Virus record (IMG/VR): IMGVR_UViG_2563366840_000003
From: a virus
Taxonomy: Duplodnaviria; Heunggongvirae; Uroviricota; Caudoviricetes
Length of the DNA: 23,883 nucleotides
Direction: 5' to 3' (one strand)
A program made the translations under genes and the position numbers. This document shows positions 7,999 through 23,149 of this stretch, piece after piece. The notes under the pieces are model-generated. The model saw only the letters and a program-made list of their open reading frames with translations. It did not search any database and was not told where the DNA came from. Position 1 is the stretch's first letter; each line of letters starts with the position of its first letter.

Positions 7999-8787
7999 AT
8001 GCTGGAAAAAGACTACCAGTTATCCGCATATAAAAAATTGGCCGCCGCCGGTGGGATGAAAACACCTGGTGCCATAACATCGGCACGAAACAGTGCTAAC
8101 ACAGCAAAACTGCTTGCAGAAGAATTGACCGGATTAATTCTGGATACAATTGTCTATCCCGACACTATTACCAGCTATGTTTCAACGATCAGAACAACCG
8201 CAACCGGTTTAACGAATATTGGAGGGCTGGCAACTCAGCACGCGGACCTGTTGGCTGGTTATGCTGATCTGTCAATGCTCCTTCAACTCGATATTGGTTG
8301 GGATGTTTACTGTCGTGCTAATGAGCGAGAAGTTTCAGAACTGCCGATCTCTATTGCCATTGGTGACGCGACTACAACGAAATCGCTTGAGGACGCTGTA
8401 AATGCGCTTAATACGTCGAGTTTAGTCGCTGCTATGGAGGACATTAACCAGACCCTTAACACAGGCTCAGGAAGCTCGTCAGGCTCTGATTCAGGTGGCG
8501 GCGCAGTCACTCCCCCACCAGCACTGACAGAACAACAAGTTGAAGCACTGAAGGAAGCTACTGAACAATTTGGTGCTTTTTTCGACCAGACAACAGTACC
8601 GGTAGCAGCATTGCAACAGCAGTATGAACGAGCGAAGGAAAGCGCCAGCGTAGCCATAACTGCTTATAACCATGCTATCGGTACCGCGCTTGCGGAAGCA
8701 TCAGCAAATAAGGCCAGCACAGCCAGCGCAGTTGCCGCTTTGGTTCCTGATTCTGTTCTTGATGAATTAAACAAAGCGGCACAGTAA
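7999..8787 (+). CDS. hypothetical Ala-rich helical protein with an internal Gly/Ser linker
   Basis: AGGAG 5 nt upstream of the ATG at 7999 (ORF track starts further upstream at 7942); 262 aa with GSGSSSGSDSGGG linker; no motif I can assign. Confidence 0.5.
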   Translation: MLEKDYQLSAYKKLAAAGGMKTPGAITSARNSANTAKLLAEELTGLILDTIVYPDTITSYVSTIRTTATGLTNIGGLATQHADLLAGYADLSMLLQLDIGWDVYCRANEREVSELPISIAIGDATTTKSLEDAVNALNTSSLVAAMEDINQTLNTGSGSSSGSDSGGGAVTPPPALTEQQVEALKEATEQFGAFFDQTTVPVAALQQQYERAKESASVAITAYNHAIGTALAEASANKASTASAVAALVPDSVLDELNKAAQ

Positions 8788-18641: not shown

Positions 18642-19151
18642 ATGGGGCACAATAACACTAAGGGAAACCGTAAATTTATTAAGGGCCGCTATACTGCCAA
18701 CGCGGCCAAAGGCGAACGACTGGTATCTTCTGAATTCCAGCTCACTTTTGCAGGCCATGAAGATATCAGCGTACTGGTTCGCACGTCGCAAATTCCTGAA
18801 ATGACCCGCGAGGATGTGGAGGACTATGGTCCGAATGGTGTGAAGTTCAACCAGCACGGTCCAATTCGAAACTCTGGGGAAATCCAGGTCCAGTGCGTGG
18901 AGACTATCGAAGGCGATATTCTTCAGTTCATTAAAGATCGCATTGCGGCGAAGGACTATGTTGATATCACGATGGCTGCTACCCCTGAATCCAAATCTTC
19001 CGGGGTTAACGCTGTGACAAAAGCTGCTACAACAATTGAAATGTTGGACTGCAAAATCTACAGTGATGCAATCGACTTTAGTACCGAAGATGTGACTGCC
19101 GCTGTGCGCCCGTCACTTCGTATCGTCTACAACTGGATTGAGTGGGATTAA
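18642..19151 (+). CDS. hypothetical structural/morphogenesis protein (169 aa), possibly tube or baseplate component
   Basis: AAGGA RBS, last gene before a strong terminator; size and beta-rich composition are compatible with a tail-tube-like protein but not diagnostic. Confidence 0.4.
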   Translation: MGHNNTKGNRKFIKGRYTANAAKGERLVSSEFQLTFAGHEDISVLVRTSQIPEMTREDVEDYGPNGVKFNQHGPIRNSGEIQVQCVETIEGDILQFIKDRIAAKDYVDITMAATPESKSSGVNAVTKAATTIEMLDCKIYSDAIDFSTEDVTAAVRPSLRIVYNWIEWD

Positions 19152-19170
19152 GAGTCATCCCTTGTATTTT

Positions 19171-19196
19171 AAAGCTCCTTCGGGAGCTTTTTTATT
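19171..19196. terminator. intrinsic terminator between convergent units
   Basis: AGCTCC-TTCG-GGAGCT hairpin followed by TTTTTTATTT on the plus strand and preceded by AAA, so it can also serve the minus-strand hok transcript. Confidence 0.7.
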
Positions 19197-19267
19197 TGGA
19201 GAGGAAAGGGTGCATTGAGGATACCTGACACACGAAGAGTGGCGAGGATCTCTCCCCGCCAGGTCTC

Positions 19268-19423
19268 TTACCTTTCAGATTCGTAGGCTGTGAAGACAGT
19301 GACCTCCGTCTGGCCGGTTCGGATTCGTACCTCGCAGAGGTCTTTCCTCGTTACCAGTGCCGTCACAATGACGGTTAAACAGATGACGATCAGAGCGATT
19401 AATATCGCTTTTTGCTGCTTCAT
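19268..19423 (-). CDS. hok: Hok/Gef-family type I toxin (51 aa)
   Basis: Codon-by-codon reading gives MKQQKAILIALIVICLTVIVTALVTRKDLCEVRIRTGQTEVTVFTAYESER, almost identical to E. coli HokD/RelF-type toxins as recalled. Below the ORF-track size cutoff. Confidence 0.85.
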   Translation of the reverse strand: MKQQKAILIALIVICLTVIVTALVTRKDLCEVRIRTGQTEVTVFTAYESER

Positions 19424-19481
19424 AGCCTGCTTCTCCTTGACCTTTTGGTCGGTAAGAGGCTAATCTACGTATGCTAAGCAT
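19275..19481 (-). CDS. mok: mok-like overlapping reading frame
   Basis: 68-aa ORF starting 58 nt upstream of hok and overlapping it out of frame, the arrangement known from hok/sok loci. Confidence 0.45.
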   Translation of the reverse strand: MLSIRRLASYRPKGQGEAGYEAAKSDINRSDRHLFNRHCDGTGNEERPLRGTNPNRPDGGHCLHSLRI

Positions 19482-19530
19482 AGATATTGCCTCAGATTAA
19501 TGTTAAGCGTCTTGCAGGACGCGTAATGTT
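19437..19530 (+). ncRNA. sok: candidate sok-like antisense RNA and promoter (boundaries approximate)
   Basis: Plus-strand TTGACC at 19437-19442 and a TAATCT-like -10 about 18 bp downstream would direct a transcript antisense to the mok start region; hairpin GCGTC-TTGCAG-GACGC at 19508-19523. Not independently verifiable here. Confidence 0.25.
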
Positions 19531-19757
19531 ATCTGGGGCTTTCTTCTATCTGCTTTTCGGGTAATGCCTGAAGCAGATAGCCTCAAGCACCCGCAATGAT
19601 TGTATCAATGTCTGGCTTTTTTTCTATAGAAATCACCGGGAAGGGTGAATATCCACATCAGAAGAAATGTTGCAGCAAACATGATCCCTAATGGCCAGAC
19701 CGCGCCAAAGAAAATCCATACTGAAAACGCCAGGTGACTCCAGATTAGAGCAATCTA

Positions 19758-20603
19758 TCACCCTCTGAATCCCGCCGGTATACCCCATTGTTCGTTATCT
19801 TTATTTTTGGCTAAAACCGCATTAAGAGCTTCGTTTACCATCATGCAATGCGGCAGATTATCGAAGTTTGATACCCCGCCAATATCAGGAGAACGCTTGT
19901 TCTTCAGGTAAGCATATTTCCGCGCTGCCGCCTCTACTTTCTGCTTGAACTCATGTTTTTGAGCGCGTTTTTTGGATAACCGCAGATTGTCAGCCTTTGC
20001 TTTTGCCTCAGCGATCCATGAAGTCAATTTTTTGAGTCTGCTCGTTCCGGCACCGCCGGAAACTGATCTTTTTGTTTTTTTAACTTGTGACTTCTTATTC
20101 TTTATTGCCACGTCATCCTGACAGGGGGAGGGGGTATCATTTTGACATGGGGGTGTGGATAAAAAATTAAATAAAGCCAATGTCTTAGCGAGAACAGCTT
20201 TAACCTTGGTTGCCGCTGAAGAGATCTTTAATTTGCTTTCAATCAGCGCATTTTTGGCTTGTTGTGCGAAGGCCAAAAAGGATGGTGTAAACCGGTACAG
20301 GTTAGCGCGACGTTCACGGTGATCGCCGATAACAATCTCTACAGACAGGATTCCTTTGTTTACAGCTTCACGGAATGCACGAACGACGGTTGATTGGCTA
20401 TAACCAGTTTCTGCCGCGATCAGGCGGTGAGGCTTGTGAATGAAGTATTCACTGGTTGTTGCCGCTAGATTTGCACATTGCGACAGGATATGCCCGGCGC
20501 TACGGGATAGACCGGAGTGTGTTACAAAGCAGGCCAATTCATAGCCAGAAAAAGTAAAATCGCTCATCGTTATACAGCTCAGGAAAGTGACTTTAGCCAG
20601 CAT
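19758..20603 (-). CDS. repL: RepL-type replication protein (P1 lytic replicon)
   Basis: 281-aa ORF immediately downstream of the kilA-like gene on the same strand with no intergenic RBS-rich spacer; recognised as P1 RepL-like from memory. The start could instead be the in-frame ATG 12 codons downstream. Confidence 0.6.
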   Translation of the reverse strand: MLAKVTFLSCITMSDFTFSGYELACFVTHSGLSRSAGHILSQCANLAATTSEYFIHKPHRLIAAETGYSQSTVVRAFREAVNKGILSVEIVIGDHRERRANLYRFTPSFLAFAQQAKNALIESKLKISSAATKVKAVLAKTLALFNFLSTPPCQNDTPSPCQDDVAIKNKKSQVKKTKRSVSGGAGTSRLKKLTSWIAEAKAKADNLRLSKKRAQKHEFKQKVEAAARKYAYLKNKRSPDIGGVSNFDNLPHCMMVNEALNAVLAKNKDNEQWGIPAGFRG

Positions 20604-22858: not shown

Positions 22859-23149
22859 AGTTACGGCCTCACAATCAGGTTTAACAACCTGCTACCCGCT
22901 GCTAAACAGGTGGCAGGACGTGACGGGGTTAGCAGACTGGCGATTGTGAAACCAGCAGGCCGAAGCCTCCCCATCACGCCCCACCATAATTTGGGCGTAA
23001 CGCGGTTTTACGGACACAAAAATACCGCAATATCGGATATCTGCGGCTGTCCGCACAATCATTCAGGCTGCTAAACCCGGTCGCAGAATTTGCTACGACG
23101 GCGGAACTATAAGCCTGAACGATTAAAAGGTCAATATGATGCGAAAAGA

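Follow-up and report, generated by a model that had tools for sequence, protein, structure and literature searches.

The window, that is the whole stretch of DNA analysed here (23,883 nucleotides), comes from a P1-like phage-plasmid. Its left part contains a Cin-like invertase, a TerB-like gene, three tRNA genes (1763-1835, 3270-3342 and 3348-3420, all on the minus strand), as expected of a P1-like tRNA cluster, and dmt. The invertase (842-1426, plus strand; Resolvase and HTH_7) adjoins the TerB-like gene and the tRNAs, and accompanies an HK97 stf/tfa-like tail-fibre/tail-fibre-assembly piece, 91% identical, located in positions 1-1500, where a collar-domain ORF is found at 281-796 on the minus strand. 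This initial portion stays outside the alignments to the best-matching P1-like plasmids, which begin at position 1502. The plasmid partition genes parA and parB are present; repA is unconfirmed in the window, where a 281-aa ORF at 7942-8787 has no Pfam match. The tail genes 23, 22, 21, pmgG and bplB follow on the plus strand, up to the end of bplB at 19151. The lytic replicon side, with repL, kilA and ant1, is on the minus strand and is followed by the C4 RNA; the C4 antisense RNA (22906-22991) and the a1b1 target (23060-23112), both on the minus strand, are as expected of a P1-like immunity region. A hok/sok locus sits between the terminator hairpin of bplB and the stop of repL at 19758, in the place between morphogenesis terminator and repL where an earlier reading of the sequence (the original prediction) had put it. 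Its features are collected in Table 1.

Table 1. Features of the bplB-repL interval. Positions refer to the window.
Feature	Position	Strand	Remarks
bplB tail operon terminator hairpin and T-run	19171-19196 (hairpin 19171-19190)		terminator scan
Replacement module	19194-19743		550 bp here, 693 bp in undeleted relatives; junction alignments
Predicted full-length hok mRNA	19195-19592	-	about 398 nt
fbi (fold-back inhibition) element, CCUCAAUGCACCC	19208-19220	-	pairs with 5' tac
hok toxin gene	19268-19423	-	51 aa; GGAG Shine-Dalgarno 9 nt upstream
mok reading frame	19275-19481	-	68 aa; overlapping, in a frame other than that of hok; ATG preceded at 8 nt by a GAGG Shine-Dalgarno
Predicted Sok promoter	19437-19466	+	TTGACC (19437-19442), 18 nt, TAATCT (19461-19466)
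Predicted Sok antisense RNA	19474-19543	+	about 70 nt; annotated sokW of 933W maps here
tac element, 5' end of hok mRNA, GGGUGCUUGAGG	19581-19592	-	first position of RF01794 match; conserved with R1-type GGCGCUUGAGG
Predicted hok promoter	19599-19626	-	TAGAAA, 16 nt, TG-n-TACAAT; promoter scan
Remnant of a pseudogene: last ~38 codons of an 81-aa membrane ORF with two helices	19605-19721	-	phrog_3772, E=3e-54
143-bp deletion scar, ACT microhomology	19719-19720		alignment versus most relatives
C1 operator Orlf/Op55 remnant, ATTGCTCTAATCTGGAG	19738-19754	-	right recombination junction

The 51-codon ORF is translated as MKQQKAILIALIVICLTVIVTALVTRKDLCEVRIRTGQTEVTVFTAYESER; toxins of the Hok/Gef family measure about 50 aa and have a transmembrane helix at the N-terminus and a conserved C-terminal domain, a description with which this ORF agrees. 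It matches positions 2-42 of the 42 of the Pfam profile HOK_GEF (PF01848; E=1.3e-21, 76 bits with a cut-off of 22) and phrog_251, 'MokW-like host killing' (1.9e-31), which bears out the Hok/Gef toxin gene originally proposed; with the NCBIfam Hok subfamily model it scores 50 bits, under the curated cut-off of 73. The explanation of hok as a chance ORF was ruled out by the Pfam and Rfam scores. The peptide is 94% identical (47/50) to the K-12 'toxic protein HokD', 90% to HokW of 933W and 42% to R1 Hok. By tblastn, the R1 Hok sequence used for the last comparison was found with at least 99% identity in more than 2,600 plasmids, the best matches listed being 100% identical. The Hok encoded in the window carries M7I with respect to HokD, HokW and most P1-like copies.

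The overlapping mok frame, also part of the original prediction, matches phrog_37205 (E=1.9e-20) and was confirmed in a frame other than that of hok. Both its ATG (19481-19479) and its GAGG fall within the region targeted by the predicted Sok RNA. When hok is extended upstream in its own frame a stop is met, and a 1-nt insertion (AAAGGTCAAGG) throws mok out of frame with hok. The annotated mokW of 933W, in contrast, is an in-frame, N-terminally extended Hok. The mok frame differs among loci, being in frame, as an N-terminally extended Hok, both in 933W (L004, 663-875) and in an IncFII plasmid with a Hok identical to that of R1 (L010, 344-559). In R1, mok is out of frame with hok too.

The ability of the hok transcript to fold was analyzed on the predicted 398-nt RNA, starting at the tac element. 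Its minimum free energy fold has a z-score of -8.6, and nucleotides 1-12 are paired with nucleotides 373-385, corresponding to fbi. An end-to-end closure of the same kind was obtained for the 933W hokW and for the R1-type hok mRNA, used as positive control; the paired 5' and 3' elements are about 385-391 nt apart in both the window and the R1-type mRNA. The tac/fbi pair is GGGUGC/GCACCC in the window as against GGCGC/GCGCC in the R1-type control, with matching changes on both sides. When the hok mRNA was truncated at the 3' end and folded again, a local 5' hairpin was formed, with no clear tac-ucb rearrangement.

The leader was also recognized by the Rfam model RF01794, which matches 19418-19592 on the minus strand over its full length (1-157) with 114.3 bits (gathering score 59; E=1e-26). 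This model, named 'sok antitoxin', spans the region from the tac sequence to the hok AUG, that is the hok-sense leader, the predicted Sok being on the opposite strand; as it matches the hok-sense strand, strand calls derived from RF01794 would mislead. A further match of the same model on the plus strand (19535-19683, 20.6 bits) is far under the gathering score and was rejected as due to chance, as were matches to ceN48, CRISPR-DR46 and sbrA, all far under their respective gathering scores.

At the other end of the transcript, homology to P1 ends at 19193, 15 nt from fbi, and the cassette has no terminator of its own, so that the hok mRNA must end at the reversed bplB hairpin. Read convergently, with a short U stretch after it, this hairpin is probably a weaker 3' end of the hok mRNA. 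The interval originally proposed for the locus (19268-19757) is to be corrected at both ends: the functional unit reaches left to about 19195, with fbi in the 3' untranslated region, and the right part of that interval (19605-19757) lies outside hok/sok, being taken up by a truncated neighbour ORF and a C1 operator remnant.

On the opposite strand, the sokW annotated in 933W (L004, 867-937) maps onto the window as reported in Table 1. The predicted Sok RNA is composed of a short 5' tail, a long hairpin (19489-19539) and a U-rich tail, CUUUCUUCU, and folds with -35 kcal/mol (z=-6.05). Its predicted start is 8 nt past the -10 box. The Sok promoter was not called by a generic promoter scan, its weak -10 box matching at only 3 of 6 positions; it coincides with two blocks conserved in 933W and in the R1-type IncFII locus, CAAGGAGAAG and TAGCCTCTTACC (hok sense), and was kept for this homology alone. 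The plausible antisense promoter of the original prediction is thus found at a position homologous to those of the 933W sokW and R1-type Sok promoter region. The -10 box of the hok promoter ends 6 nt ahead of the predicted +1 at 19592. With a cis-encoded antisense Sok gene recognized at this level as well, the locus is, by every criterion that can be applied to the sequence, a hok/mok/sok type I toxin-antitoxin system.

Among known systems, the closest are hokW/mokW/sokW of 933W (AF125520) and lambdoid prophage loci of the Rac/Qin hokD type, with 87-91% DNA identity limited to 19208-19595, the transcribed unit. Likeness with the 933W type includes tac, fbi and the Sok hairpin with its extended tip, and the Sok promoter blocks are at the same positions, whereas both the promoter-proximal and the terminator-proximal flanks are unrelated. 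[quoted passage not shown] With K-12 hokD (relF, Qin prophage), DNA homology runs from the hok Shine-Dalgarno through fbi; the K-12 locus lacks the whole leader (tac, mok start and sok) and has relBE instead, while the copy in the window has all of these leader elements. The experimental paradigm, parB (hok/sok) of R1/IncFII, shows the same gene order, tac, a mok ATG that falls within the target of Sok, as well as the GGTAAGAGGCTA block and the hok Shine-Dalgarno. All the regulatory blocks are conserved with the R1-type locus despite the divergence of the Hok peptide, and the window has a Sok hairpin that exceeds the R1 type by about 16-19 nt.

The interval was compared with reference P1 (NC_005856). 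Identity runs through 19193, in the bplB terminator, and is found again from 19744. Between these two points, the reference contains pmgF-rlfB-rlfA, about 1.8 kb, genes that are also present in P7, where they are named differently (rapA/rapB); no hok is found in the bplB-repL slot of either phage. The proposal that canonical P1 has other genes here is in agreement with this result, and the same locus, whose presence in reference P1 had been named as a finding that would refute the prediction, is not there, so that the proposal stands. Among the ORFs located between bplB and repL in the window, none is a homologue of RlfA (DUF3800) or RlfB. The replacement module starts with a linker of 14 nt, followed by the hok transcription unit (19208-19595) and the remains of a small ORF.

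The right junction falls within a C1 operator, which retains its 11-nt core ATTGCTCTAAT (19754-19744) and has an unrelated CTGGAG at its remaining six positions. This core occurs 3 times in the window, with 0.02 occurrences expected, and full C1 operators stand elsewhere in the window at the expected places. Since the operator is cut at the junction, the rlf-type arrangement would have come first, which suggests that it preceded the hok/sok module. The original prediction of a module acquired in this position is therefore supported as to a module of 550 bp standing in place of the P1 and P7 genes; acquisition is what we infer from the junction, and the arrangement itself turned out not to be unusual.

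Its distribution was evaluated on the plasmids collected in PLSDB, where about 296 contain 80% or more of 19152-19800 at a single site. A P1-type repL is found in about 507 plasmids and the pmgF-rlfB-rlfA set of reference P1 in 99; among PLSDB plasmids with a P1-type repL, the shares are about 58% for hok/sok and about 20% for rlfAB. Thus, hok/sok is the commonest state of the slot among P1-like plasmids in PLSDB. The module was also found in 272 of 5,426 complete E. coli genomes (RefSeq). It is about 99% conserved across the approximately 296 P1-like plasmids, five PLSDB plasmids being 100% identical to the window over the interval. The P1-like relatives NZ_CP040069, NZ_CP061756, MH422554 and phi456 are 98.6-100% identical, with the same bplB and repL junctions. 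Phage records with the same module and junctions are MH422554, MH445380/1, phi456 and Ro157c2YLVW; MH422554 and MH445380/1 are named 'Punavirus P1' or 'Escherichia phage P1'. The gene is annotated as hokD by PGAP, or as 'MokW', as in MH422554 ('Punavirus P1'), and its coding sequence is called intact by PGAP in every record listed or inspected; annotation of mok or sok was found in none of the P1-like records inspected. The locus is, in other words, a textbook system, for which hundreds of public records already have an annotation in precisely this position. The slot has been published as 'variable region 5 (rlfA, rlfB, pmgF)' of P1-like phage-plasmids (PMC9603915), and a literature search returned no paper on hok/sok specifically at the bplB-repL slot of P1.

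Other contents of the same slot were observed. RlfA and RlfB of reference P1 (L003, 3675-4843) are annotated as 'possibly associated with lytic replication'. In phage 673R5 (L009, 800-2100), the slot contains a 171-aa ORF and a copy of the small membrane ORF with a frameshift, and no Hok-like ORF among those of at least 45 aa. In RCS47 (L011, 2650-5090), a 198-aa ORF is found together with ISEc46, of the IS605 family. At least four alleles of the bplB-repL slot are therefore known.

The small ORF upstream of hok belongs to phrog_3772, a family of unknown function, and showed no significant match to Pfam, NCBIfam or PADLOC. Most P1-like relatives are without the 143-bp deletion and keep the 81-aa ORF intact; in the window, the deletion takes out the start and the first ~44 codons, and in an identical plasmid the remnant is labelled by PGAP 'membrane domain protein, missing N-terminus'. 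Exactly the same deletion is common to 5 PLSDB plasmids. The ORF was considered as a possible part of the toxin-antitoxin system and rejected: homology with hok loci not belonging to P1-like elements stops at the hok +1, and its DNA is found only in P1-like phages, including 673R5, which argues against membership.

This decay of adjacent DNA, together with M7I and the missing native terminator, would be consistent with an inactive relic, a silent or non-toxic copy hitch-hiking on the element like most of the chromosomal hok loci of E. coli K-12. We consider this very unlikely: 93 bp separate the end of the deletion from the hok -35 hexamer, on the upstream side of the latter; the two reading frames (hok and mok) are intact, as are their Shine-Dalgarno sites, the Sok hairpin and the tac and fbi elements; M7I is a conservative change in the N-terminal tail, and the module is conserved, at the level given above, over hundreds of plasmids. 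Many chromosomal hok loci are inactive, so that an intact sequence is not in itself proof of activity.

The vicinity of the lytic replicon suggests a different connection, in which C1-controlled kilA-repL transcription would read through into hok, and induction would raise hok or displace Sok transcription, contributing to host shut-down or lysis. Both genes are on one strand, with hok 165 bp downstream of repL; a weak stem of five pairs (19633-19648) is all that resembles a terminator in between, and the core of a C1 operator is kept at the junction. The argument is purely positional, however, and the operator is a half-site only; RNA folding and Sok exert post-transcriptional control over hok translation, it is not obvious that a transcript extended at its 5' end would be active, and the same cassette is autonomous in other replicons. 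Such wiring appears most improbable.

Taken with the features described, the locus is very probably a complete cassette, belonging to the hokD/hokW subgroup, that the phage-plasmid holds in its bplB-repL slot as accessory cargo and that would act by the R1-type mechanism as a second post-segregational killing system. The steps of this mechanism are those of the R1 paradigm, of which the present copy displays the sequence elements alone. A constitutive promoter (19599-19626) would give rise to a stable transcript of hok, about 400 nt long, which would be kept untranslated by pairing of its 5' tac with its 3' fbi. Slow trimming of the 3' end would take off fbi and allow the leader to refold, exposing the mok ribosome-binding site. 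The short-lived Sok RNA, made in excess from a stronger promoter, would pair over the mok start region, blocking translation of mok, and hence the coupled translation of hok, and triggering cleavage of the duplex. Upon loss of the one-copy prophage-plasmid, Sok synthesis would stop, the stored hok mRNA would be translated, and the 51-aa Hok peptide would depolarise the inner membrane, leading to cell death.

The addition of such a system to phd-doc, as originally proposed, is in line with the content of a relative. Plasmid NZ_CP040069 carries both a 100%-identical module and phd-doc, so that hok/sok would be an extra addiction system in elements of this kind; in the element analysed here, the phd-doc region is outside the window. 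In NZ_CP040069 (L013, 5113-8788), a Tn3-family transposase with a RelE/ParE-Phd pair is also found, inserted in an antirepressor gene, for three toxin-antitoxin systems in all.

The same device could also serve another purpose, since an arrest of host transcription would exhaust Sok as well, and infections by other phages could be aborted in this way. A role selected as anti-phage abortive infection, or as competition among mobile elements, rather than plasmid stabilisation, is in our judgement rather unlikely: a lytic phage would shut down host transcription, Sok would decay, and Hok would kill the cell before progeny is released. RlfA and RlfB, the alternative cargo of the slot, match the PADLOC candidate defence system PDC-M04A/PDC-M04B (E=1e-95 and 1e-51, respectively), and this type of element already has phd-doc for addiction; on the other hand, no PADLOC model matches the Hok of the window, and PDC-M04, for which a literature search by name found no paper, is merely a candidate system. 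The hok/sok system of R1 is said to exclude phage T4, as reported by Pecota and Wood in 1996. The two roles are not mutually exclusive, and the rivalry between them is over function, not over mechanism.

The match of RlfA/RlfB to PDC-M04 and the existence of at least four alleles indicate that the slot behaves like a defence/accessory hotspot. It might be pictured, in a broader reading that we regard as unlikely, as a hotspot of defence/addiction where hok/sok, present in the majority, and RlfA/RlfB are interchangeable, with hok/sok acting mainly in abortive infection or against displacement, the targets being other phages or competing P1-like elements, and possibly in response to read-through from the lytic replicon. 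Stabilisation of the prophage-plasmid by post-segregational killing is the function that we favour.

What is known of hok/sok itself is unchanged by this locus. The laboratory reference P1 is atypical of natural P1-like phage-plasmids at this slot, and the exchange, at a single locus, between hok/sok and a candidate defence pair offers a modest lead on defence hotspots. Since hok/sok is found in about 58% of the PLSDB plasmids with a P1-type repL, natural P1-like elements would usually have two addiction systems; these two types, the type I hok/sok and the type II phd-doc, bear on the persistence of such elements as carriers of resistance genes, and on their curing or displacement.
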